DNA of 41,633 nt from Promethearchaeota archaeon (GTDB taxonomy: Archaea; Asgardarchaeota; Lokiarchaeia; Sigyniarchaeales; SOKP01): positions 4,602 to 46,234 of the forward strand of contig JBHLOC010000038.1 in NCBI GenBank assembly GCA_048940925.1, given 5' to 3'. Shown in pieces: positions 10,591-35,275 of this stretch. The position numbers were made by a program, and so were the translations under genes. The notes under the pieces are model-generated. The model was not told where the DNA came from. It was given only the letters and a program-made list of their open reading frames with translations, and did no database searches. Each line of letters begins with the position of its first letter. The stretch's first letter is position 1.

Positions 10591-12462
10591 ATGCGCTGGA
10601 GCTACGTTTTAATTGGCATAGGGGTCGGTATTATCTTAACTTCACTATTTATTTTGGAATTTATTATTTTTAATTCGATCTTTTGGAGTTTCTTAATTAC
10701 AATTGCGGTGATATTGAATTCTGCTCATATTCTTACGCATAAATTTAATTGGGAATTAGATGCTAAAAAAGTGCTTTCTATATATTTCACTCTCACCACA
10801 ACCTCGATGATTATAGAATTTGTATTGACAGGAAGTTTTCTTTGGAGCTTTTCTTTAACAGTTATTTCGCTTTTTTTTGTAGGACATTATTTAACGAAAG
10901 GATTTAATATTCTTTTCAGACAGTTTCATATAAAAGAAATATATCGGGGTTTAATCAGCTTTTATTTAACGTTTGTATACTTTTTCATACTATTTTACAT
11001 ACTTTTTCAAAGTGTTAATCAATCCTTTCTTTTAATCGAATTTACTTTTATATTTTATATATCCTTAATTTGTATGATTTTACTAACAATAAATTCTTTA
11101 ATTAGAATAGTAGCAGTTGGTTTTCATAGAAGGAAATATGAAATTTTTCCTATTAACATGATAGAATATGCTGCTTTATACTACTTAAGAAAGACAGATG
11201 ATAATCGTTTAGACTTTTTGGAATTAAAAAAGCAGATTATTGGAATTTTAAATGTTTTTACAGAAAATGTTTATTTTGACGATAAAACAGCAAAGTCCAG
11301 CATCTATTTTCTTTGCGCTCGTGGACTTGCAGATATCAAAAACAATGATGTTTATCTAAACGATCTGGGTAAACAAAAGGGAAATCTATGGGAGGAGACA
11401 TTACATAACCAAATGGGTAACTTTAATAAAATTTTAAATAGGAATAGTGTATTAATAAGATCTTTTTTAGGATTATTTATTCTAAGTCTTCTTAAAATTT
11501 TTATAGGATTTTTCAATTCAGAATCATTATTTGCAGAAGGATTCGAAAATCTACTGGATTGTATTGCAGTAATTTTAATTGTAATAGGCATCAAAATTAA
11601 AAAAGAAAAATTAGTAAACATAATCATTATCAGCTTAATGGCATTTACAGGGGGTTCAATTTTACTAAATTCAATTCAATCTTTAATTTATGGCCCTAAA
11701 CCCATTTCTAATGTAATATATATTGTGATAATTGCGCTAGTATCAATAATTTTAAATAACTACTTACGAATATTGAAAAATTTTGTAGGGAAAAAAAATA
11801 GGAACTCTTCACTAATCGCAAGTGCAATAGATTCGAAAGTTAATATTATAATATCAATCAGCATTATTGCAGGCGCCCTTTTATCAAATCTTGGAACCTC
11901 TTTAGGGATTCCTGTATTTCATTACGGGGATCCAATTATCGCAATTTTTGTATGTGTTCTCATTTTTAAAGAAGTTTTTGAAATATTTCGCGATTTAATC
12001 ACCTCAAAAGAAGAAGAAATTGAATTTGAAAAATTCCAGATGAAATATGAGAAAAATTTTGAAGAATACATAACCAAGTGGATACTCACGGTCTATTATG
12101 ATGATTTAAATCTAGAATTCACACCTGAACAATTATCAGAGTATTTTCAAAAATCTTTGAAGCAAGGTGAAGAGGTTTACACTGAGTTTGCTTACTTTGG
12201 TTTATATATTTTTAAAGAAAAAGGTATAATCCCAGTAATAAATGACTTACTTAATGAGAAACTCTTATCCTTATCAGAAAACGGATTTCTCAACTTAACC
12301 AAAAGAGGTGGATATTTTTTTGAACATCTCTATTCCAAAGAATTACTGACCGATCTCAAAGATCCTTTTGATTTCTTTTTTGAACAACAAATTAGTTTTG
12401 ATAGTATTCAATCCAGAAAGCTTGAAATAATCGAAAATTTCCAACTAATTGAAAATAAATGA
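10591..12462 (+). CDS. Cation diffusion facilitator (CDF)-like transporter with extra N-terminal TM bundle and two winged-helix-like domains
   Basis: CDF signatures NSESLFAEGFENLLD (TM2), NSSLIASAIDSKVN (TM5), YGDPIIAI (TM6). wHTH-like segments end in YFLCARGLADIKNNDVYLNDLG and DLLNEKLLSLSENGFLNLTKRG. Confidence 0.72.
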   Translation: MRWSYVLIGIGVGIILTSLFILEFIIFNSIFWSFLITIAVILNSAHILTHKFNWELDAKKVLSIYFTLTTTSMIIEFVLTGSFLWSFSLTVISLFFVGHYLTKGFNILFRQFHIKEIYRGLISFYLTFVYFFILFYILFQSVNQSFLLIEFTFIFYISLICMILLTINSLIRIVAVGFHRRKYEIFPINMIEYAALYYLRKTDDNRLDFLELKKQIIGILNVFTENVYFDDKTAKSSIYFLCARGLADIKNNDVYLNDLGKQKGNLWEETLHNQMGNFNKILNRNSVLIRSFLGLFILSLLKIFIGFFNSESLFAEGFENLLDCIAVILIVIGIKIKKEKLVNIIIISLMAFTGGSILLNSIQSLIYGPKPISNVIYIVIIALVSIILNNYLRILKNFVGKKNRNSSLIASAIDSKVNIIISISIIAGALLSNLGTSLGIPVFHYGDPIIAIFVCVLIFKEVFEIFRDLITSKEEEIEFEKFQMKYEKNFEEYITKWILTVYYDDLNLEFTPEQLSEYFQKSLKQGEEVYTEFAYFGLYIFKEKGIIPVINDLLNEKLLSLSENGFLNLTKRGGYFFEHLYSKELLTDLKDPFDFFFEQQISFDSIQSRKLEIIENFQLIENK

Positions 12463-12523
12463 AGAAGAACATACTCAGTTTTGTGGAAAAAAAATAAAAA
12501 AGTAATATTTTCTTTCGTCTATT

Positions 12524-12790
12524 TTACTTTAAATCAAAATAATCATTTACAAGGGTATAAAATTTTTTCAATACTTCTTCACCTCGGTTTGTAGTCTGAT
12601 ATTTTATACCTTTTTCATTGTTTAATTTTTCAATTAAATTTCGAGAAAGGAGAAACTGAAGTGTTTCTTTTATCGCACTCGTTTTTAGACGTGTTTTTCG
12701 TAATAGCCATGTTTGAGTTCTTCTTGCCCTTAAACAATATTCTAATACTTCAGCCCAAATTTCGAATTTGCTACGTCTTGAAGAGCTCAT
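12524..12790 (-). CDS. Archaeal winged helix-turn-helix regulator (HTH_45-like)
   Basis: MSSSRRSKFEIWAEVL...TQTWLLRKTRL...LQFLLSRNLI...YQTTNRG. ATG 12790 has GGTGAGA upstream and avoids overlap with the upstream gene. Confidence 0.85.
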   Translation of the reverse strand: MSSSRRSKFEIWAEVLEYCLRARRTQTWLLRKTRLKTSAIKETLQFLLSRNLIEKLNNEKGIKYQTTNRGEEVLKKFYTLVNDYFDLK

Positions 12791-12812
12791 TAATATCTCA
12801 CCAAAATTACAA

Positions 12813-13544
12813 TTATGGGGGCTTCTCCTCATCAAAAGAGATTGAATTATTTAAAGGGAATTGATCTAAATCTTGAGCCCATTCTTCTAACTTAGGGAAA
12901 AGATTCTCCCATTTAACGATTTCATTTCTAATTTTAATTGATGTTATCAGATTCATTAACCAAAAGAATAGAATTGATAGAAACATTATTACATTACTGA
13001 TATTTATTAAAATACTTACATTTCCAGGATCTAAAAGACGTGTAAATAATAAAACAACAAAGAAACCAGAAAAGAAATTAAGGAATAAGAAAGTACTCAC
13101 TAATTTAACTAACGTTGTTTTTTCTTTTGAATAGCGATTGAAAAACGCATAAAAATTAGCAATATAAGGGACAATTCCGTCGTAGAGCTTAGATTGTGAT
13201 TTTTTATCACTTTTAACTTGTTTAAGAGATTGATTTCCTCTGATTATGAATAAGCTGTAAAAGATTATCTGAAATCCTATTTGAAAAATTAGTAAGTAAA
13301 GCACTGTAATTATAATTATAGTCACTATGGTTCCAAATAAGCCATATCTTTCAGATATATCAGTTGTAGTTTGTCCTGTAATGAATAAATATGTCCATAG
13401 AATAATAAATCCTATTGAAAATAGAAATAACAGGATTAGCGATGAGAAGTGAATTTTAAATAGCTGATTTATTCTTTTAAATTTTGTATATAATGATTTT
13501 TGGCTTTGAATTAATCCATTTTTTTCATTTTTGATTTTTTCCAC
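12813..13544 (-). CDS. Hypothetical 4-TM membrane protein, probably co-transcribed with the wHTH regulator
   Basis: Two pairs of TM helices. GTG start with AAGGTGAG RBS; 22 nt to the downstream ATG. Confidence 0.75.
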   Translation of the reverse strand: MEKIKNEKNGLIQSQKSLYTKFKRINQLFKIHFSSLILLFLFSIGFIILWTYLFITGQTTTDISERYGLFGTIVTIIIITVLYLLIFQIGFQIIFYSLFIIRGNQSLKQVKSDKKSQSKLYDGIVPYIANFYAFFNRYSKEKTTLVKLVSTFLFLNFFSGFFVVLLFTRLLDPGNVSILINISNVIMFLSILFFWLMNLITSIKIRNEIVKWENLFPKLEEWAQDLDQFPLNNSISFDEEKPP

Positions 13545-13837
13545 AATCTCACCTTAAAAGATATTATGATATACAAGGGAGCAATAATATTTAAGTATGT
13601 AAGGGCAAATTGTAGCTAGGGACCGATAGTCCTCATTTTTATAATTTTTTAGATGATAAATATAAGAAAAAATTGATATTTTTCATGTTTTTAGAAAAAG
13701 TCCTTATAGTAGAAAATAAAATAGACTGTATAATTCTTAATTGCCTATAGAGGGAATTTAAAAATCAAAATAATATTTATTTAAAAGTTCATAGATTAAA
13801 TGTGTATCTACATTCAAAATACCCTTGAAAAAAAATA

Positions 13838-25902: not shown

Positions 25903-26156
25903 TATTAGACCATCTCTTTAGATTGTCTTATAATTCTATTATATAAAGTCATTTATTTTACAACTTAAAATCTTTAATATCAAAAAAGTAGTTCGTTTCT
26001 TAAACATATTCCTATTTAAAGTTACAAATTAATTTTAAAGATTTACGAGCTGAATATTCTTTTTAACACAAATTGAAAATTGAAGAAATTAAAAATAATA
26101 AAATAAAAAATGGACCTCACATTTTTATGATGTATATTCTGAATAGATGAGATTTT

Positions 26157-26819
26157 ATGGATAAGGAAAAATTAATAACCATTATTGGAATGGGACCTGG
26201 TAATGGAATGGGAATTGCAAGACGGTTTGGTAAAGAAGGTTTTTCAGTTGCTATGATTTCACGAAATGAAGAAAAGTTACAAAAACTCCAAGGAGAATTA
26301 AAAAAAGAAGATATAAATGCTCATTATTTTGTAGGGGATGCAAGCAAGCAAGAATCCTTAAAGAATTCGTTTCAACAAATAAAGGAAGAACTAGGGAGCA
26401 CGGATGTGTTGATCTATAATGCTGCCCGATTAAAGATGAGAAATATTCTTGAAGAACGCTTCGAATCTTTAGTTACTGATTTCAAGGTGAATGTAGCAGG
26501 AGTTTTAGTCGCTGTTCAGGAGGTGCTTCCATCAATGCTAGCAAACAAGGAAGGTACCATTCTTGTTACCGGAGGACATCTAGGTATTGAACCTCATAAA
26601 GAATTTGCTTCGCTTTCTATAGGAAAGGGGGCCCTTATTAATTTGGTGAAAGTATTAGCAGCAGAATTATCCACAAAGAATATCCATGTCGGTTCGGTTA
26701 TTATTTGTGGAATTGTAAATCCAAAAGATGAGAAATACAATCCCACGGCAATTGCAGAACAATTTTGGAGATTGCATACTCAGAAAAAGGAAAGATTTGA
26801 AGTAGAAATATTATATTAG
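26157..26819 (+). CDS. Short-chain dehydrogenase/reductase (SDR), atypical
   Basis: IIGMGPGNG, DVLIYNA, VNV, ILVTG. The YxxxK position reads LSIGK. Confidence 0.85.
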   Translation: MDKEKLITIIGMGPGNGMGIARRFGKEGFSVAMISRNEEKLQKLQGELKKEDINAHYFVGDASKQESLKNSFQQIKEELGSTDVLIYNAARLKMRNILEERFESLVTDFKVNVAGVLVAVQEVLPSMLANKEGTILVTGGHLGIEPHKEFASLSIGKGALINLVKVLAAELSTKNIHVGSVIICGIVNPKDEKYNPTAIAEQFWRLHTQKKERFEVEILY

Positions 26820-27036
26820 ACTGAAATATATTTCTATATATATTTATTATTTATTGATGTGAACTTTCTCGTTGTTTTTACTTTCAAACTATAATAAAGA
26901 GGTTTATATTAGTAGAGATTCTTCTGCATCATGAACTCCTTATTTTGCCCTTTCATAATAAGATATTTATAAACTATTATGTATCTTACTATTAATTGGG
27001 CAAAAATATATTAAAAATCAATTAAAAAGCAATGAA

Positions 27037-27043
27037 GAGGTGA
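27037..27043 (+). promoter_or_regulatory. Shine-Dalgarno GAGGTGA upstream of wrbA
   Basis: GAGGTGA lies 5 nt before the in-frame ATA at 27049. Confidence 0.7.
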
Positions 27044-27048
27044 ACTAA

Positions 27049-27714
27049 ATAAATAATTCTAGACCAAAGATTTTAATTCTCTTCTATTCTACTTATGGTC
27101 ATATCTATAAAATGGCGAAAGCGGTAGCAGAAGGTGTTAAGGAAGCAGGAGGGACGCCAATCATTAAAACAGTTGAAGAATTAATGCCAGAAAAATATTG
27201 GGATGAAAATGTGAGAAAAGCAAAAGATCTTATGAAAGATATACCAATCGCTGATCCTCGTCAAGATCTTAAAGATATTCAAGGCATAATTGTTGGAACA
27301 CCTACTCGCTTTGGAAATATGACTGCTCAAATGAGAAACTTCTGGGATCAGACAGGAGAGGATTGGTTAAATGGAACATTAGTGGGAAAACCAGCCTCAG
27401 TATTTTCGAGTACTGCAACGCAGCATGGAGGGCAAGAAGCAACTATTCTTTCAACAATGATAACTTTACTACATCAAGGATTAGTCTTGGTAGGTTTACC
27501 ATATTCTTTTCGAGAACAAATGAGAGTGGACGAAATAACAGGTGGAACGCCGTATGGTGCTTCAACAATTGCTGGTCCTAATGGCGAGAGAATGCCGAGT
27601 GAAAATGAGTTACAATTAGCAAGAGATCTGGGACGGCATCATACTGAGATTGCAATCAAACTGATGACAAAAATTCCAGTATTAGAGAAAGAAAGTATTG
27701 CTTTAGAAGCTTAA
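27049..27714 (+). CDS. wrbA: NAD(P)H:quinone oxidoreductase type IV (WrbA)
   Basis: The frame extends upstream of ATG 27112 through [19 protein letters not shown]. Also [48 protein letters not shown]. Confidence 0.9.
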
Positions 27715-27937
27715 TCCATTATTGTCTATATTAATGATCTGATAAATAGAAGGGAAATAAAATTTACATTTTTTCTTTTTTTTTTATATATGATTAGGCA
27801 AATTAAACACACATACCAATATATTCTATTTAAAATTCTAATGTTGACTAGATATGAATATTTAATTACTAATACTTGATCAGAATTCACACATAATGGG
27901 TATGAAGAAATTAACTGAAAGATGCATTCAGTCTAAT

Positions 27938-28603
27938 CTATTTTATTGATAAAATTATCTGAAAAAAGCTGAGGAATTCTTTCACTGGAATTATTTTTTG
28001 TATCTTAAAGCCAACATTTTTTAGTTCTTTTAATATATTTTTTTGCATTTCGAATGAGTGAGAAGTAATTTTTTCAATAAATCCCAGATAAAAGTTATAT
28101 AGAATTCGAAGTGAAGTTTTTGAAGGTTCATGATGTTCAAAAATTAAAAGAATACCGCCTTTTTTTAGTACCCTATGGATTTCAGAAAGGACATTTAATC
28201 TTTGATTTTTATCCATCTCATGTATTGCTGCAGAAATCACAACATGATTGAAATAATTATTTGAAAATTTCATTTCATTAGCATCCATTACTGTAAATTT
28301 TAGATTAGGATATTTATTCTTTTTTTGCGCTTGGGCGATCTGACCAAGAGATAAGTCGACTCCTATAAGATTGCAATCTTTATAAAGCAACTTTGTAAGT
28401 AAGATCGTTAGTGTACCAGTTCCACAGCATAAATCTAATATTCGATCACCTCTTCTGATATATGGAGATAAAGTCTTAAAGACGCTAACTCGAAGTATCT
28501 TTTCTCCCACTGGAGTCAATCCTATCTTCAATCCGATATCATATACCCTAGAAATAAAAATATCATATATTTGCGTATATCTTTTTGATTGATAACTGGT
28601 CAT
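27938..28603 (-). CDS. Class I SAM-dependent methyltransferase (UbiE/MenG-like)
   Basis: ILDLCCGTG, GVDLS, ISAAIHEM, EIHRVLKKGG. Confidence 0.87.
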   Translation of the reverse strand: MTSYQSKRYTQIYDIFISRVYDIGLKIGLTPVGEKILRVSVFKTLSPYIRRGDRILDLCCGTGTLTILLTKLLYKDCNLIGVDLSLGQIAQAQKKNKYPNLKFTVMDANEMKFSNNYFNHVVISAAIHEMDKNQRLNVLSEIHRVLKKGGILLIFEHHEPSKTSLRILYNFYLGFIEKITSHSFEMQKNILKELKNVGFKIQKIIPVKEFLSFFQIILSIK

Positions 28604-28782
28604 CTAACATTAGAATATTATTTAATCTCAAACTATCTAATATTAAATAAAAAGCAGAAATAAATATAGAAAAAAACTCTGTTTATTTATTATTAATAAA
28701 AAATACAAAAACTGGTAATAGACTCAAAACCTAGTGGGAGATATAAAATCTTAAAAAAATCTTTTTATTATGTGATGGAAAA

Positions 28783-29538
28783 ATGAGTGAAGAAAAGCCA
28801 GAACCCGCACCACCAAAACAAAATAAACTTGTAGGAGCTGGTCTAGGTTTAATTATCATGGGCTTAGCTTATCTTGTGTGGTGGTTATCATTTATTGAAA
28901 ATGCAATAATAGATCCCCGATGGACTCATAATATTGCATATGCGATTATAATTTTAAATGTAGGTGTAGCCTGGTATTATAAAACTCCATTATCAAGAAC
29001 GGTTGTGATGATTCAATCCTTTATGCTACCCATAACGGGCAGCGGATCATTTGATACAGTAATTTGCACTATTATCACTTCAATAATACTTGTTCTCTGG
29101 ATTTTTATAGTACTATTTGAAAAGAATAGAGGAAAGGAGTTTTTTAAAGAGAAAATAAGTACTAGAGGTAAGAATTGGATTAATATGCACACGCTGATTG
29201 TTGCATGGATCTTAATAGGGCATATGGGTTTAATGTTCTTTATTGTCAGATTGCCCCTAGAAGCTCAACTCTATGGTTATGGTGAAAGAGCTGGATATCT
29301 CATGAATTTACCACCTGAGAGTTATGAATTTGCTACCTGGACATTTAATATTGGGTTATTTTTGCTAATTTCGGTAATTTTATGGGAACAATACAAAATG
29401 GGATACAATTTACAGAATAATCCTTGGCCGAGAAAAAGTTTTTGGGTTGTTCTTATCATAATGGGAGCTTCTCTAGTTGCTTTAGCAATTCAAAGTATTA
29501 CTGTGGGTATGGATTGGGTGGAAGTAGTTTATAGCTAA
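28783..29538 (+). CDS. Hypothetical multi-pass membrane protein (about 7 TM)
   Basis: Multiple hydrophobic helices with His-containing motifs RWTHN, WINMH and GHMG. Confidence 0.75.
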   Translation: MSEEKPEPAPPKQNKLVGAGLGLIIMGLAYLVWWLSFIENAIIDPRWTHNIAYAIIILNVGVAWYYKTPLSRTVVMIQSFMLPITGSGSFDTVICTIITSIILVLWIFIVLFEKNRGKEFFKEKISTRGKNWINMHTLIVAWILIGHMGLMFFIVRLPLEAQLYGYGERAGYLMNLPPESYEFATWTFNIGLFLLISVILWEQYKMGYNLQNNPWPRKSFWVVLIIMGASLVALAIQSITVGMDWVEVVYS

Positions 29539-29616
29539 AATATTTTTAAGTACTTTTAAAATGTAACAAATTGATTTAATTCAATATAAATATTTCAGAA
29601 TATTAGTGAATTATAT

Positions 29617-30705
29617 ATGAAAGAAGAGGATGTGTCATTAGCCCACGCAGGGATGACTTCTGAATTTGAGCTTCAAAAGGAATATTATGACAAGGGAAAA
29701 ATATTTATAGTTCAAATTGAATCTACATTAAGATGTTCCCAGTTATGTAATTACTGTTATGCAGGAAGTACACCAGATAGTCCAGAAGGTATGAATTCTG
29801 AAAAGATAAAAGAATTATTAGATACATCGTATAAATTGGGAGTCTATATGATTGATTGGTTGGGAGGAGATCCACTTCTAAGGAAGGATTGGCATGAATT
29901 ATGCAGTTATGCTTCAGAGTTAGGGTTAATTAATAATATATGGACTAGTGGTATTCCCTTAGCAAATCCAGAGGTAGCAAAAAAAGCTGTCAAAGTAACT
30001 AAGAGAGGTTTTATTTCAACGCATCTAGATACTCTAAATCCAGAATTATATTCTATTTTACATGGAGGTGAAAGACACAAGGGTGTTGTTAAAAATATAG
30101 AATTAATTATAAAAGGAATTAAAAATATTTTGTCTGTTGGGAAAGATCCAGGTGCAATAGTAAATTGTATTACCTATACTTCCCCTTTAGCTGATGGAGA
30201 TGCAAAGAGTATGATTTCTTATATGCAAGAGGTATTTGGTATAAAAACTTGTCTAACTTTATTCAATCCTGTGATATACCGTAATGCTAATGCATCCTGG
30301 GAACCTAATATTACTCAAATTGAGGATGCATTTACTCATAGAGACATGGTAAATTATCCTGACTATCCTTCATGCGGAGTTATGGATGTATCAAAGTTTT
30401 ACTGTGGAACAGTTATTTGTATAACTAGTAATGGATGGTTAACGCCTTGTTCGGTTATTAGAACACAAGAATTTGGTAATGTGTATGATGAGAAACTTGA
30501 AGTGTTAATTGAGAAAAATAAAAGGAGACTTCTCTTTTTAGACTTTAGAGATCCTTTTAAACTTCCAGGGAATTGTAGTGATTGTGCCAACAACTCATTT
30601 TGTTTTGGATGCAGAAGTAGTGCTTATTATTATGAAGGAGATATATTGTCAGTGGATCCTAAGTGTTATCAATTCACACCGAAAATTCTTAAGGAGGAAG
30701 ACTAA
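29617..30705 (+). CDS. Radical SAM protein with SPASM domain
   Basis: CSQLCNYC (CxxxCxxC) and GGDPL. C-terminal YCGTVICITSNGWLTPC and CSDC...CFGCR...DPKC. Confidence 0.92.
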   Translation: MKEEDVSLAHAGMTSEFELQKEYYDKGKIFIVQIESTLRCSQLCNYCYAGSTPDSPEGMNSEKIKELLDTSYKLGVYMIDWLGGDPLLRKDWHELCSYASELGLINNIWTSGIPLANPEVAKKAVKVTKRGFISTHLDTLNPELYSILHGGERHKGVVKNIELIIKGIKNILSVGKDPGAIVNCITYTSPLADGDAKSMISYMQEVFGIKTCLTLFNPVIYRNANASWEPNITQIEDAFTHRDMVNYPDYPSCGVMDVSKFYCGTVICITSNGWLTPCSVIRTQEFGNVYDEKLEVLIEKNKRRLLFLDFRDPFKLPGNCSDCANNSFCFGCRSSAYYYEGDILSVDPKCYQFTPKILKEED

Positions 30706-30809
30706 TATTTTTATTTTCAGCTTAAAATCTCTTTTTAATGATTTATCTAATTTAATTTTAAATATATTAATTTTATAATATATCATGGCTATTTGAAACC
30801 GTTATTTAT

Positions 30810-31613
30810 ATGCATAGAAAAAAGTATGATTTCTCAGTCTGGGATGTAAGTGAAGTATATGCCGGTCCAGGAGGTAAGCTTTGGGAACTACTTATGGGTG
30901 ATCAAATTCACGTTGGAGGAGCAGATCAAACAGATGTTTTGGCAAAAAAGATAGGTCTTGATAAAAAAAAAGATATCTATTTATTAGATGTTTGTTCGGC
31001 TCTAGGTGGCCCGGCAAGACACTTAGCAGAAAAATATAGTGTTAACGTCCTGGGATTAGATATTACTCCTGAAATAATAGAAGAAGCTAAAAAACGGACA
31101 ATAGGAAAGTCTTATGCAGATAAAATCGAATACAGACTTGGATCAGCTCTAGATATACCAGCTCATAAAAATACTTTTGATGTTGTTTGGGGTCAAGATG
31201 CATGGTGTTATATTAGAGACAAACCCAGACTTATAAATGAAATTAATAGAGTTTTAAAATCTGGAGGTATCTTAGGATTTACAGATTGGATTTGGGGGTC
31301 TATTGATGCACCTGAAACCGAAGCCGATTATCTGATGGAATTTATGGTATTTCCCGATATGCAAACTTATGAGGGATATATAAGACTTATTGAAATAGTC
31401 GGAATGAATCTTGAAGAAAAGGAAAATCTTAATCATGATTTCGCAATTCATATGGATCACTATGTTTCAATTCTACAAAAAAATAAAGATAATATTATCA
31501 ATGGATTCGGAAAGGAATTATATGAAGAAGCAGAAAAAGGATTACTGGCTTGGCAGCGTGCTGCTCATAATAAATGGGTAAGTAGAGGTTTATGGATTGC
31601 GAAAAAACCTTAA
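30810..31613 (+). CDS. SAM-dependent methyltransferase, sarcosine/dimethylglycine- or phosphoethanolamine-N-methyltransferase-like
   Basis: QIHVGG, LLDVCSALGGPARHLA, LGLDIT, FDVVWGQDAW, EINRVLKSGGILGFTD. Confidence 0.8.
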   Translation: MHRKKYDFSVWDVSEVYAGPGGKLWELLMGDQIHVGGADQTDVLAKKIGLDKKKDIYLLDVCSALGGPARHLAEKYSVNVLGLDITPEIIEEAKKRTIGKSYADKIEYRLGSALDIPAHKNTFDVVWGQDAWCYIRDKPRLINEINRVLKSGGILGFTDWIWGSIDAPETEADYLMEFMVFPDMQTYEGYIRLIEIVGMNLEEKENLNHDFAIHMDHYVSILQKNKDNIINGFGKELYEEAEKGLLAWQRAAHNKWVSRGLWIAKKP

Positions 31614-31652
31614 CTTTTTTTCAAAATTTTAATTAATTATTTGTTTTTTAAT

Positions 31653-32447
31653 ATGGATTCAGTAATAATTATCTTTACAAAAGTACCAATCCCAGGGTCT
31701 GTAAAAACCCGTTTGACCCAAAATACATGTTTAACAGAATTAGATTCCGCTAAAATTGCTGAAGCGATGCTCAAAGACACGATTAGTTTAGCTTCCAAGA
31801 CTGATGTGAATAGAATTCAAATTGGATATTATCCTAAGGAAGCAATAAAAACACTTAATAAAATTATTGATTCGGTCAGAGCTGATGGTTGCTTAAAAAA
31901 ACCAGTGGAGTTAATTCTTCAAATTGGGTCAAATTTTGATCAGCGGTTTGGATCAGTTATAAAGGAATCTTTTAAAGAAAATGTGAACTTTTTAATTGTT
32001 TTAGGTGCAGATTTACCATTTTTAGATCCAAAGATAATAAACAAAGCTTTAGAAAACTTAATTGAAAAAATCGATGAGAAACCAGTCATTATAGGTCCTT
32101 CTAGTGGCGGAGGTATATATCTTGTTGGAGTCACTAATGATTTTAACCCAAGTTGGTTTTCAGATTATAAGTTGTTTAGAGGAGGATCAGAGTTATCTAA
32201 ATTTGCTGCTTTCTGTGGAGAAAATAAATTTCCGTTAATAACTCTCCCTCCGTATGGTGATATAGATATCGAAGAAGATTTAGTTTCATTAATTTCCTAT
32301 ATTAAAATACTTAAAAATTCAGAAAAAACCATTGGTTTCTATTTTCCTCATTATACTAACAAAATCATAGAAAAATTAGATATTTATATTCTCGAAAAAC
32401 AAGATCAAACGCGTAGGCGAAAAATAGCGAAAAGAAACTGTAAATAA
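31653..32447 (+). CDS. DUF2064 / TIGR04282-like transferase (CofC-related fold)
   Basis: IIFTKVPIPGSVKTRL, Q-G-NFDQR, VLGADLP, IGPSSGGGIYLVG, DIDIEEDL. ATG 31653 preferred to TTG 31641. Confidence 0.85.
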   Translation: MDSVIIIFTKVPIPGSVKTRLTQNTCLTELDSAKIAEAMLKDTISLASKTDVNRIQIGYYPKEAIKTLNKIIDSVRADGCLKKPVELILQIGSNFDQRFGSVIKESFKENVNFLIVLGADLPFLDPKIINKALENLIEKIDEKPVIIGPSSGGGIYLVGVTNDFNPSWFSDYKLFRGGSELSKFAAFCGENKFPLITLPPYGDIDIEEDLVSLISYIKILKNSEKTIGFYFPHYTNKIIEKLDIYILEKQDQTRRRKIAKRNCK

Positions 32448-32452
32448 AAATC

Positions 32453-33226
32453 ATGCAGGTAAGTATAATAATTATAACGTTGAATGAAGAAGAAAATATC
32501 GAAAAAACTGTAAAGAATGCTCGTTTAGCAGCACGTTTTCCTTCGGGAAGTGGAGTTCCTATTGAAATCATTGTTAGCGATGGAGGATCTACGGATTGCA
32601 CTACTGAAATTGCACAAAACATAGCAGATAAAGTGATTATTGGACCAAAGGGAAGATATTTGCAGTTAAATGCTGGTGCTAAACAAGCAAAAGGAGATAT
32701 TTTACTTTTTTTACATGCTGATACAATTTTACCAGAAGGTGCTATTATAAGAATCCTTTATAGATTAAAAAATCCTAAGGTTATCGGAGGAGCTTTTAAG
32801 AAAGATTGGAATTGGAATCCTAGTGTTAAACGATCATCATTCCTTAAATTTGCGAGTTTCTGGTGGCAAGGATTAGGTAACTGGCTTGTGAGATTACTAA
32901 GAACTTTTCCTGGAGATAATGCTATTTTTGTTCGTAAATCAATTTTTGAAGAAATTAAAGGATTTCGACCTTTATGGATATGTGAAGATTTTGATTTTTC
33001 TCACAGATTAAGAAAATATGGGAAGAAGAGATTTATATATATACACTCAACAGTACTTACATCAACAAGGCGATATGAAAAATATGGATTCCTTTATATA
33101 AATATAATGTGGATTTTAATATATTTTCGATGGCGTTTTGGTATGTCTCAGAAACGTCTAGAAGATAAATTTAATAAATATTCTACAATTCCAGAGAAAG
33201 GAAATAAAAATTATCTAAAATTTTAA
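32453..33226 (+). CDS. GT2 glycosyltransferase, TIGR04283-like
   Basis: SIIIITLNEE, VSDGGSTD, GRYLQLNAGA, LLFLHADT, GDNAIFVRKSIF, CEDFDF, TSTRRY. Confidence 0.88.
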   Translation: MQVSIIIITLNEEENIEKTVKNARLAARFPSGSGVPIEIIVSDGGSTDCTTEIAQNIADKVIIGPKGRYLQLNAGAKQAKGDILLFLHADTILPEGAIIRILYRLKNPKVIGGAFKKDWNWNPSVKRSSFLKFASFWWQGLGNWLVRLLRTFPGDNAIFVRKSIFEEIKGFRPLWICEDFDFSHRLRKYGKKRFIYIHSTVLTSTRRYEKYGFLYINIMWILIYFRWRFGMSQKRLEDKFNKYSTIPEKGNKNYLKF

Positions 33227-33264
33227 CAAAGTCTGATGTAAGTCTTATTGGTTTGATTTTAGTT

Positions 33265-34668
33265 TCACTCATCTTTCTTTTTACTCTCTAAATATTTTAA
33301 ATATTCGAGCTCCTTTTTCTCATGTATTTTAATTATTTCTGCTTTTTGAGAAGTCCATTCAGGACCATCCAGCTGGTAAAAAAACATTACTAGTGCGCCT
33401 AAGATCAAAAATAAGGACGGAATCAGTGCAAATCCAATCATGATTCCCAATTGCGCAGAGAAATTTTGAGTTTGTTGGTCTGAATTGAATCCAAAAAGTG
33501 TGATAATAATTAAAAATAACCAATTTGCCAAGGAAATTGCTGGTTTTGTAATCAATGCGTTTATTCCAGAATAAGTTGTTTCCCTGCGCTTTCCTGTTCG
33601 TACTTCGTCGTAATCAACAATATCAGCTACAACCACTTGGTTTGTAAGCATATACCCAGAAATCCCGATACCTATTAAGATACATCCAATTATAGCAAGC
33701 TCAAATGTCCATCCAATAAAAAAACTTAAAAGGAAACTCAATCCTGTCCACATCATTGCGAAAATGAAGGTTTTTTTAACCCCATATTTCCCAATTAGTT
33801 TATTAAAAATAACTAAGAACGCAAATATCATTATGAAGACTATTAATAATGGAAACGTAGTGGCGATGCCGGACAAGATCAAGACATAATTAACATAATA
33901 AAAAATTGCGGTAGTAAGGATTGTCTGGGCAATTGTAAAAGAAAAGTTAGATACTTCAAAAATTAAAAAAGGTGTATTTTTAAATGTTTCTTTTATTCCT
34001 TTGATGATTGGAAGTGTTTCTTCCATTTGTGTATATTTATTTTCTTTTAAGTGAAAACTACTCATGTATATCATTATAGCGGAAATAATACCCACAATTA
34101 TCATAGTAATGAGAAATGGAGTAATCACATGAGGTGATTCAATTCCAGTTAATAAAAATATTGGTAAGATAAAAGAAATTAAAAGTGAGATAGAAGTTAT
34201 TATATTACTATATATCATCAAATTACCTCTTTCTTGTGAAGTTAATGTCATTTCTGCTGGAAGGGTATAATTTATAAGCCCTAGTATTGTGAATAGGGTA
34301 TCAAAGACGAATAAAACGACAATTAAATTAAAAAAGAGGGCAACTTGGTTATTTACATCAACAAATGGAAACCAACATAAAATGAACACTATGCCATATA
34401 TCGGAGCGCCGAATCGAATATAGGGGATTCTCCTGCCATATTTTTCTGATTTAGTATGATCTTCTATGAAACCAAATATAGGATCATTGATCGCATTCCA
34501 AAATGAAAAGATTAACCATGCGATTCCAATCAATTGAGCGTTCAACCCTAAAACTACGTTATAAAAGAATGTAATAGCTGAAAATGCTATTTGAGACGGC
34601 AAGTTAATACCCGCTCCAAAAATTCCATATGCTAATTTCGATTTTAATGATAATTCTTCAATTGACAT
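33265..34668 (-). CDS. MFS transporter, glycoside-pentoside-hexuronide (GPH/MelB) family
   Basis: WNAINDPIFG, GRRIPY, ADIVDYDEVRTGKRRE; about 12 TM. Confidence 0.9.
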   Translation of the reverse strand: MSIEELSLKSKLAYGIFGAGINLPSQIAFSAITFFYNVVLGLNAQLIGIAWLIFSFWNAINDPIFGFIEDHTKSEKYGRRIPYIRFGAPIYGIVFILCWFPFVDVNNQVALFFNLIVVLFVFDTLFTILGLINYTLPAEMTLTSQERGNLMIYSNIITSISLLISFILPIFLLTGIESPHVITPFLITMIIVGIISAIMIYMSSFHLKENKYTQMEETLPIIKGIKETFKNTPFLIFEVSNFSFTIAQTILTTAIFYYVNYVLILSGIATTFPLLIVFIMIFAFLVIFNKLIGKYGVKKTFIFAMMWTGLSFLLSFFIGWTFELAIIGCILIGIGISGYMLTNQVVVADIVDYDEVRTGKRRETTYSGINALITKPAISLANWLFLIIITLFGFNSDQQTQNFSAQLGIMIGFALIPSLFLILGALVMFFYQLDGPEWTSQKAEIIKIHEKKELEYLKYLESKKKDE

Positions 34669-34783
34669 TAATTTATCAAGTTTAATATGGATCTCAAGAT
34701 ATAATTAAATCTTTAGGCAACTTAAAAACTAAAATTAAATTAAATAAATCAATTTACTTTAATACTATATTATAATATTCAAG

Positions 34784-35275
34784 ATGGAATTTATGGTAAA
34801 ATTCAATATATCAACAATTATTAACCAAAATCCAGAAATTGTATGGAAAGCTTTTATAGATCCACAGAATATGATACATTGGACACGATTTTTAGAAAAG
34901 GTGGAAATTATCAAGGGGAAATTAGGAGAAATAGGAGCAATTTCTCATTTACATTACTTAGAGAAAGGTCGTTCCTATATCTTAGAAGATAAGTTACTTT
35001 CTTATGAGGAAGGGAAGAGAATAGAATCTCAGGTCTCTGGACAGGGGTTGAATATTATTGTTGAAACGATTTTAGAATCACATCCGAAGGGAACAAAAAT
35101 TTCGATGACGTGGAATGGAACAAGTAAATCCTTTTTTACCAGGATTATCCTAAAATTAATGCAAGGTAAAATTAGCAAAAATGCAAAGTCTGAATTAGAT
35201 ACTTTTAAAAGTTTGGTTGAGAAATACGGAGTTAGTTTCTCTGATCATGATTTAGGTCGGAAATTAATTCCCTAA
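34784..35275 (+). CDS. SRPBCC (START/polyketide cyclase) family protein
   Basis: INQNPEIVWKAFIDPQNMIHW...GTKISMT...ELDTFKSLVE pattern. Confidence 0.82.
   Translation: MEFMVKFNISTIINQNPEIVWKAFIDPQNMIHWTRFLEKVEIIKGKLGEIGAISHLHYLEKGRSYILEDKLLSYEEGKRIESQVSGQGLNIIVETILESHPKGTKISMTWNGTSKSFFTRIILKLMQGKISKNAKSELDTFKSLVEKYGVSFSDHDLGRKLIP

Follow-up and report, generated by a model that had tools for sequence, protein, structure and literature searches.

What is made by a gene cluster that combines an enzyme of the radical S-adenosylmethionine (SAM) type and a methyltransferase with two transferases of the kind named for arsenosugar biosynthesis? The question is raised by a 41,633-nucleotide stretch (the window) of contig JBHLOC010000038.1 from a Promethearchaeota archaeon (GenBank assembly GCA_048940925.1). 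Five intact open reading frames (ORFs) occupy positions 28783-33226 of the window, all of them on the + strand and separated by gaps of 78, 104, 27, and 5 nt. In this the ORF list agrees with a sequence-only reading of the DNA, which had described five co-oriented genes with short gaps, the last of 5 nt. Gene 1 (28783-29538) encodes a seven-helix integral membrane protein of 251 amino acids. Gene 2 (29617-30705) encodes the core enzyme, which is of the radical SAM type and has a complete SPASM domain (362 amino acids), and gene 3 (30810-31613) its obligate partner, a class I SAM methyltransferase of 267 amino acids from the lineage of phosphoethanolamine N-methyltransferases (PMT) and sarcosine/dimethylglycine N-methyltransferases (SDMT). 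Gene 4 (31641-32447; TTG start, first ATG at 31653) encodes a DUF2064/CofC-like nucleotidyltransferase similar to TIGR04282, and gene 5 (32453-33226) a TIGR04283-like family 2 glycosyltransferase (GT2) of 257 amino acids whose C-terminal helix is aromatic and hydrophobic. Together the five genes make up a single accessory module for biosynthesis, which comprises seven genes in close relatives. The host had been taken for a probable Asgard archaeon, and the closest homologues (70-85% identity) indeed come from metagenome-assembled genomes (MAGs) of Promethearchaeota, Hermodarchaeota, and Thorarchaeota.

Homologous loci were collected by scanning one genome per GTDB species, and the gene content of the 59 loci obtained was mapped by tblastn. 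Genes 2 and 3 are neighbours in essentially every locus that is sufficiently long, which amounts to about 55 loci. The pair is found in Asgard archaea, cultured Methanoculleus, Methanoperedens, Bog-type methanogens, Thermoplasmatota, and bacteria; gene 2 homologues share 60-85% identity with the window's enzyme in MAGs of Promethearchaeota, Thor-, Hermod-, and Odinarchaeota and 40-55% in other archaea and in bacteria. The complete order 1-2-3-4-5 is kept in about 20 Asgard loci. Methanogen-related MAGs from peat and tar biofilms have the order 2-3-4, with gene 1 present or not, and cultured Methanoculleus has a divergent GT2 gene followed by 2-3-4. One bacterial locus is ordered DUF2064-GT2-transmembrane protein-radical SAM-methyltransferase, and loci of Heimdall/Hodarchaeota read 3-2, their DUF2064 gene being located about 6 kb upstream. 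The two transferase genes mostly accompany the pair, at times in altered order. When all flanking ORFs of the loci were clustered, no further family common across clades was found. The sequence-only reading had depended on the grouping being kept elsewhere, and the genes are strongly co-conserved across the 59 loci. A grouping that is repeated in dozens of unrelated genomes is far above chance.

In some genomes genes 2 and 3 are fused and exist as a single gene. Such a fusion is P0147 (636 amino acids, six member sequences), whose C-terminal part has 46% identity to gene 3 and keeps the motif VWGQDAWCY, and a second one is a 639-amino-acid ORF in locus L032. Since the adjacency of the radical SAM and methyltransferase genes recurs and the pair is fused in both cases, the genes are functionally linked beyond reasonable doubt. 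The data show that the radical SAM/SPASM enzyme and the PMT/SDMT-type methyltransferase are the two-enzyme core of the cassette, and that this core travels with a CofC-like nucleotidyltransferase, with a GT2 enzyme similar to dolichol-phosphate mannose synthase (DPMS), and in many lineages also with the gene 1 membrane protein.

The gene 2 product matches Pfam Radical_SAM with 52.7 bits, the sole Pfam family reported for it, and has the cluster motif CxxxCxxC at C40/C44/C47. In its C-terminal half, the pattern C263...G273xxxxC278, C320xxC323x5C329xxC332, C350 is of the SPASM type, and Pfam SPASM is on record for several homologues. Both the three cysteines of the cluster motif and those of this region (C263, C268, C278, C320, C323, C329, C332, and C350) are kept in at least 93% of 58 homologues, so the full SPASM cysteine set ascribed to the enzyme from its sequence holds for the family. 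From these residues, the protein is expected to hold three Fe-S clusters, two of them auxiliary. It passes the cut-off of no NCBIfam family. The highest scores are those of NirJ2 (81.6 bits), AhbD (76.2), NirJ1 (65.3), AhbC (61.1), and NirJ (59.1), which could be taken to mean that genes 2 and 3 are akin to AhbC/AhbD/NirJ and tailor tetrapyrroles as a pair. These top matches of 61-82 bits are mostly over the generic radical SAM core and compare with curated cut-offs of 500-650 bits (AhbC 650, AhbD 500, NirJ2 500), which puts the enzyme outside AhbC and AhbD. There are no tetrapyrrole genes nearby, and the constant partners are transferases of the sugar type. A role in tetrapyrrole tailoring is therefore highly improbable.

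Two observations concern relatives of gene 2. Several Heimdall/Hodarchaeota genomes have a second, remoter radical SAM/SPASM paralogue (37-41% identity) at another locus (e.g., G004:C1:2988675-2989667). On one proteobacterial MAG contig, a gene 2 homologue with 42% identity (P0146, L089:2612-4651) is fused to a homocysteine S-methyltransferase domain. This zinc-type homocysteine/selenocysteine S-methyltransferase domain is complete and its GGCC motif intact; no DUF2064 or GT2 gene is found near it on the contig. As a functional clue the fusion was set aside, because it is known from a single contig and the stand-alone relatives of the domain have unrelated neighbours and no adjacent radical SAM gene.

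Gene 3 belongs to Pfam Methyltransf_11. Its top NCBIfam match is NF041675, sarcosine/dimethylglycine N-methyltransferase (80.2 bits, cut-off 550), and its closest solved structures are plant and Plasmodium PMT and an SDMT (5wp4, 4mwz, and 2o57). Like these enzymes, to which it aligns over its full length, gene 3 retains the catalytic Tyr (Y17) and Asp (D130). It differs from PMT, in the alignment with 4mwz and 5wp4, by having Tyr134 at the position of the catalytic His, with the conserved Cys133 beside it, and by the absence of the phosphate-binding Arg; in PfPMT, a Tyr/His pair with an Asp is catalytic, and Arg, Tyr, and Lys bind the phosphate. Because the His and the Arg are not kept, gene 3 is not a strict betaine-pathway or phosphobase enzyme. 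The sequence-only reading had likened it to betaine-pathway N-methyltransferases without the ArsM pattern, and of this the N-methyltransferase likeness and the missing ArsM pattern stand. At least 93% of homologues keep the motif W127-G-Q-D130-A-W-C133-Y134. Aromatics abound among the conserved residues (W25, W132, W160, F178, F181, and W248), a set that may form a pocket in which a group that is cationic or strongly polarised is bound.

Such an enzyme might serve to make a soluble osmolyte or methylated amine, in which case a betaine- or choline-like compound would be methylated and then glycosylated. In favour of this, gene 3 is closest, by family as well as by structure, to N-methyltransferases of betaine and phosphocholine synthesis, and its conserved residues are rich in aromatics. 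The unretained PMT His and Arg and the SDMT score (80 vs 550 bits) speak against it, and a pathway of this kind is not expected to include a dedicated membrane protein, a GT2 enzyme, and, in variant loci, a GT-C glycosyltransferase. Nor does the distribution follow any obvious salinity trend, as peat, freshwater, and marine MAGs carry the cassette. An osmolyte is thus a very unlikely product.

Gene 4 (Pfam DUF2064) scores 98.4 bits over the full TIGR04282 model, whose cut-off is 134, and 33.5 bits against CofC. Among solved structures it has a single relative, the putative nucleotide-diphospho-sugar transferase 3cgx, and the conserved K18, R20, and D120 correspond to the Lys/Arg/Asp signature of CofC/MobA-type nucleotidyltransferases. 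Gene 5 (Pfam Glycos_transf_2) has conserved D43, D90, and E178-D179. It reaches 175.9 bits over positions 1-219 of the 221 in TIGR04283, 6 bits short of the cut-off of 182, and has weak matches to ArnC, AglJ, and MftF. Its best solved relative is the archaeal DPMS 5mlz (E 5e-6), aligned over residues 1-111. Membership of genes 4 and 5 in TIGR04282 and TIGR04283 had been suggested from the sequence. The window's own genes stay under the cut-offs, but their orthologous partners in the same cassette pass: in Methanoculleus and in the bacterial locus L009, the scores are 190.5 and 197.4 bits for TIGR04282 and 197 and 222 bits for TIGR04283. Since the partners pass while gene 4 does not, gene 4 is a divergent TIGR04282 relative, and the Asgard genes 4 and 5 are both divergent relatives of true members. 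The passing partners imply that the true "arsenosugar" transferase families have a second, ArsS-independent partner module. Because both families partner a different radical SAM-methyltransferase core here, the NCBI label "arsenosugar biosynthesis glycosyltransferases" is probably misleading in many archaeal genomes.

How close, then, is the cassette to the ArsS/ArsM clusters? Both have one radical SAM enzyme, one SAM methyltransferase, one DUF2064 transferase, and one GT2 transferase. ArsS has a DUF3641 domain, instead of which the cassette enzyme has SPASM with two auxiliary clusters. The cassette methyltransferase is of the PMT/SDMT lineage, a seven-transmembrane protein is added, the window's own transferases are under the cut-offs, and no arsenic link was found. 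Against the ArsS model TIGR04167, gene 2 reaches 30.1 bits over residues 27-102 only (cut-off 300), and against the ArsM model NF008823, gene 3 reaches 38.7 bits (cut-off 263); its only cysteines, C62 and C133, do not amount to the ArsM cysteine set. Neither enzyme is thus a canonical ArsS or ArsM. In the whole 4.8-Mb genome there is no ArsS (best TIGR04167 match 41.9 bits vs 300), and a canonical arsM (NF008823, 324 bits, above the cut-off) lies on another contig at G000:C20:12851-13570, unlinked to the cassette. The proposal that the locus is an undescribed variant of the radical SAM clusters associated with TIGR04282 and TIGR04283 is borne out, with a SPASM-type enzyme that is not ArsS and an N-methyltransferase-like enzyme that is not ArsM. 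Full-text literature searches returned no characterisation of the cassette, nor of the function of DUF2064, TIGR04282, or TIGR04283. The cassette is a real, widely shared module distinct from the known arsenic-sugar pathway.

The membrane component of the module is gene 1, which has no Pfam or NCBIfam match. Its family is small, since clustering of 1.84 billion proteins at 50% leaves only 24 representatives of it, and occurs mainly beside this cassette; the gene is directly upstream of the radical SAM gene in Asgard archaea, "Halobacteriota", Methanoperedens, and one bacterial locus. A single-sequence structure model is poor (predicted local distance difference test, pLDDT, 52). With an alignment of 35 sequences, AlphaFold2 gives a seven-helix bundle with pLDDT 84.7 and a predicted template-modelling score (pTM) of 0.83. 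For this model, Foldseek returned nothing from the PDB at E <= 0.001, and in a wide VIA-align search the best Z of 6.5 was inside the noise of helical bundles. The small family of membrane proteins that gene 1 defines has no relative of known fold. Near-invariant polar residues are R46, W47, H49, N50, E113, H136, R156, and E202. Prediction of a complex between gene 1 and gene 2 gave a score of 0.00, which supports no verdict either way. Two distant relatives of gene 1 (P0131 and P0135, from L083-L086), known solely from contigs shorter than 2 kb, have a ferritin-like domain at the N terminus (E 1e-15 to 1e-19 for Pfam Ferritin), and these fusions hint at a possible metal or redox role. A link of gene 1 to TauE/SafE was rejected, as one homologue matches faintly (E 8e-4) and the other homologues do not.

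In lipid-carrier systems, a GT2 enzyme loads polyprenyl phosphate, and delivery of the sugar on the outside falls to a GT-C enzyme. Some variant neighbourhoods of the cassette contain both kinds of enzyme. In the Heimdall/Hodarchaeota and Actinomycetota loci, the TIGR04283-type GT2 is replaced by an AglJ-type one (108-130 bits against AglJ, TIGR04182, cut-off 325), and a GT87-like GT-C membrane glycosyltransferase is carried as well. By analogy, this is the layout of lipid-carrier sugar modification as in Gtr, Arn, and MtxS/MtxT (PMC12088412, PMC8780516). In the last of these, mycobacterial methylthioxylose (MTX) modification, MtxS produces the lipid-linked MTX donor and MtxT transfers MTX (PMC12088412, PMC8780516). 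The systems GtrA/B/C, ArnC/ArnT, and MtxS/MtxT resemble the cassette in having a DPMS-like GT2 with membrane partners, but they lack both a radical SAM enzyme and DUF2064. Compared with a GT-C enzyme, gene 1 is also far smaller, and it has no detectable flippase similarity.

Our best reading of the cassette, held tentatively and at slightly less than an even chance, is a lipid-carrier or membrane-linked pathway for a tailored sugar. Gene 4 would use a nucleoside triphosphate to activate the phosphate of a sugar or polyol. The activated unit would be tailored by genes 2 and 3, gene 2 making a radical-mediated change at a C-H bond and gene 3 adding a methyl group. Gene 5 would pass it on to an acceptor in the membrane, for instance polyprenyl (dolichyl) phosphate or a lipid. 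Gene 1 may have its role at the membrane too, whether as flippase, as partner of the transferase, or as conduit for electrons or ions. The outcome would be an unusual glycosyl unit, methylated and borne by a lipid or by the cell surface. Linkage and family assignments are observed, whereas we infer the order of steps, the substrate, and the acceptor. This reading is favoured because the radical SAM-methyltransferase adjacency or fusion and the transferase partners are kept despite rearrangement; because the best solved relative of gene 5 is a DPMS, in addition to the weak ArnC and AglJ matches; because the Heimdall/Hodarchaeota and Actinomycetota variants add the AglJ-type GT2 and the GT-C enzyme; because gene 4 keeps the Lys/Arg/Asp signature and the gene 1 family is found mainly beside the cassette; and because the distribution is patchy and the cassette sits in an indel, as described below.

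Several points weigh against it. Any substrate, product, or activity ascribed to the five families is putative. The alignment of gene 5 with 5mlz is limited to the N-terminal 111 residues, and gene 5 has a single hydrophobic aromatic helix (211-229) and no full transmembrane segment. For SPASM enzymes, peptides or cofactors are commoner substrates than sugars. Furthermore, three findings favour a product centred on a heteroatom, namely the arsenosugar names of TIGR04282 and TIGR04283, which stem from genome context, the genes for sulfur-anion transporters (TauE/SafE and YeeE/YedE) beside the cassette in two lineages, and the gene 2 homologue fused to a thiol methyltransferase domain.

These findings lead to another explanation, an ArsS-independent pathway for an organic compound of arsenic, selenium, or sulfur. 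Gene 3 would methylate the heteroatom, gene 2 would form a carbon-heteroatom bond or a 5'-deoxyadenosyl adduct, and the transferases would convert the adduct to a riboside or a lipid head group, similar to arsenosugar (phospho)lipids. As members of TIGR04282 and TIGR04283 above the cut-offs partner the radical SAM-methyltransferase pair in Methanoculleus and in a bacterium, the architecture of the cassette parallels that of the ArsS/ArsM clusters. In L019, L024, and L026, which belong to one Loki sub-clade, the GT2 gene (gene 5) has a TauE/SafE exporter gene directly downstream, and a YeeE/YedE gene heads the Heimdall loci. The S-methyltransferase domain fused to one gene 2 homologue is of the homocysteine/selenocysteine type and has an intact GGCC motif, C133 lies within the gene 3 motif that is so widely kept, and selenium is used by the genome, which has two selD genes with in-frame TGA. 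On the other side, gene 2 is not ArsS and the genome has none, gene 3 is not ArsM and is without its cysteine set, and the genome's canonical arsM is unlinked to the cassette. The thiol methyltransferase fusion is a single MAG contig, and stand-alone relatives of the domain are not beside radical SAM genes. The transporter associations are confined to certain lineages, and the "arsenosugar" names of the transferases are based on genome context only. The sequence-only reading had named arsenic, selenium, or an osmolyte as possible products, and nothing in the analysis ties the cassette to them. The variant neighbourhoods keep a sulfur, selenium, or arsenic product alive and do not establish it; as a pathway for this cassette, it is unlikely. 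It is likewise doubtful that the cassette is a second route to a methylated sugar lipid bearing one of these elements, in which a SPASM enzyme and an onium-type methyltransferase would replace ArsS and ArsM, with a new seven-transmembrane family at the membrane, and which would be widespread in anaerobic archaea including Asgard archaea. Arylsulfatase-family genes flank the cassette in L019, L023, L024, and L026, which belong to one Lokiarchaeia-type sub-clade.

The preference of SPASM enzymes for peptides and cofactors also brings to mind mycofactocin, in which a SPASM radical SAM enzyme, a GT2 enzyme, and a methyltransferase act together (MftC, MftF, and MftM). The cassette could by this comparison make a peptide-derived or redox cofactor of the mycofactocin or PQQ type, the SPASM enzyme modifying a precursor that is then glycosylated and methylated. 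The N-terminal half of gene 2 matches PqqE with 64.9 bits and MftC with 47.1 bits, gene 5 has its weak MftF match, and TIGR04283 is itself named "glyco_like_mftF". Related loci also have redox partners, a QueG/RdhA-like Fe-S protein and the ferritin-like fusions of gene 1 relatives. All scores are, however, far under the cut-offs. The roughly 30 residues before the cluster motif of gene 2 leave no room for a RiPP recognition element (RRE) domain, the shared neighbours include no conserved small ORF or PqqD-like gene (the gaps are 5-104 nt), and no equivalent of the precursor peptide, RRE, MftD, or MftE was found, although a peptide gene may lie elsewhere in the genome. A cofactor of this type is quite improbable.

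Aminopentanetetrol lipids are reported for the order Methanomicrobiales in general (PMC6581649), and the N-methyltransferase-like gene together with the Methanoculleus matches had suggested their head groups as the product. This idea was dropped, because the radical SAM gene is in only 20 of 151 sampled Methanomicrobiales genomes, all named matches being Methanoculleus, while the lipids are reported for the whole order. A link to the monomethyl- and dimethyl-phosphatidylethanolamine (MMPE and DMPE) and pentose head groups of Methanoperedens is circumstantial only and was not retained. Since the cassette exists in cultured Methanoculleus species (e.g., M. sediminis, M. frigidifontis, and M. nereidis; loci L051, L052, and L054), a direct search for the product is possible. 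A glycan of the surface or of a lipid, if that is what is made, would mean a new radical-enzyme step in archaeal envelope chemistry and a strain-variable surface trait for Asgard archaea. A product bearing sulfur, selenium, or arsenic would mean a new route in element cycling.

Within its own lineage, the cassette is part of a larger insertion or deletion. As revealed by blastn against L090, from the closest same-genus genome (G465), positions 11366-12145 correspond to window 26055-26834 and positions 12186-13629 to window 33274-34717. The flanking genes, for a short-chain dehydrogenase/reductase and a major facilitator superfamily transporter, are thus 40 bp apart in that genome, and 6.4 kb (26835-33273) lies between them here. 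This block, absent from the closest same-genus genome, holds a wrbA-like gene, a divergent methyltransferase gene, and genes 1-5. None of 22 other species in the window's genus yielded the radical SAM gene; in a sister genus, it is found in 10 of 27 species, and the block has 78-81% nucleotide identity to the sister-genus loci. At the edges of the block, neither boundary repeats nor genes for mobility were seen, the repeats there being short, AT-rich, and due to chance. The patchy distribution and the indel position indicate that the cassette is an accessory module, which is acquired or lost in one piece.

The divergent methyltransferase (27938-28603, - strand) is a UbiE/CpaM-like class I enzyme and the sixth conserved neighbour in Lokiarchaeia-type loci. 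It matches Pfam Methyltransf_25/Ubie_methyltran, its top NCBIfam scores are 90 bits for UbiE and 78.6 bits for CpaM, both below the cut-offs, and its orthologues (58-81% identity) adjoin the cassette in 11 related loci. Between this gene and gene 1, at window 28604-28782, about 0.7 kb is missing in comparison with L015:6420-7127. In the sister-genus loci, the missing part encodes a 228-amino-acid QueG/RdhA-like protein with two [4Fe-4S] motifs. A paralogue of this protein (57% identity) exists at G000:C62:25793-26446, where the surroundings contain nothing of the cassette. As part of the 6.4-kb block, the module either came into this genome or survived in it alone, and it has lost its QueG-like partner gene. 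The five genes of the sequence-only reading are all present; what it left out are the divergent methyltransferase and the loss of the Fe-S gene.

Further minor features were observed in and around the block. The wrbA-like frame (window 27037-27714) contains one stop codon when read from 27037, and the ORF from the first ATG (27112) begins at position 19 of the FMN_red profile, its N-terminal part missing. A second indel relative to G465 (L090), of about 0.5 kb at window 34718-35256, holds an SRPBCC/polyketide-cyclase-like gene (34784-35275). Elsewhere in the genome, the two selD genes are in tandem at G000:C72:3553-6078, and the one in-frame TGA in each of them indicates the use of selenocysteine.

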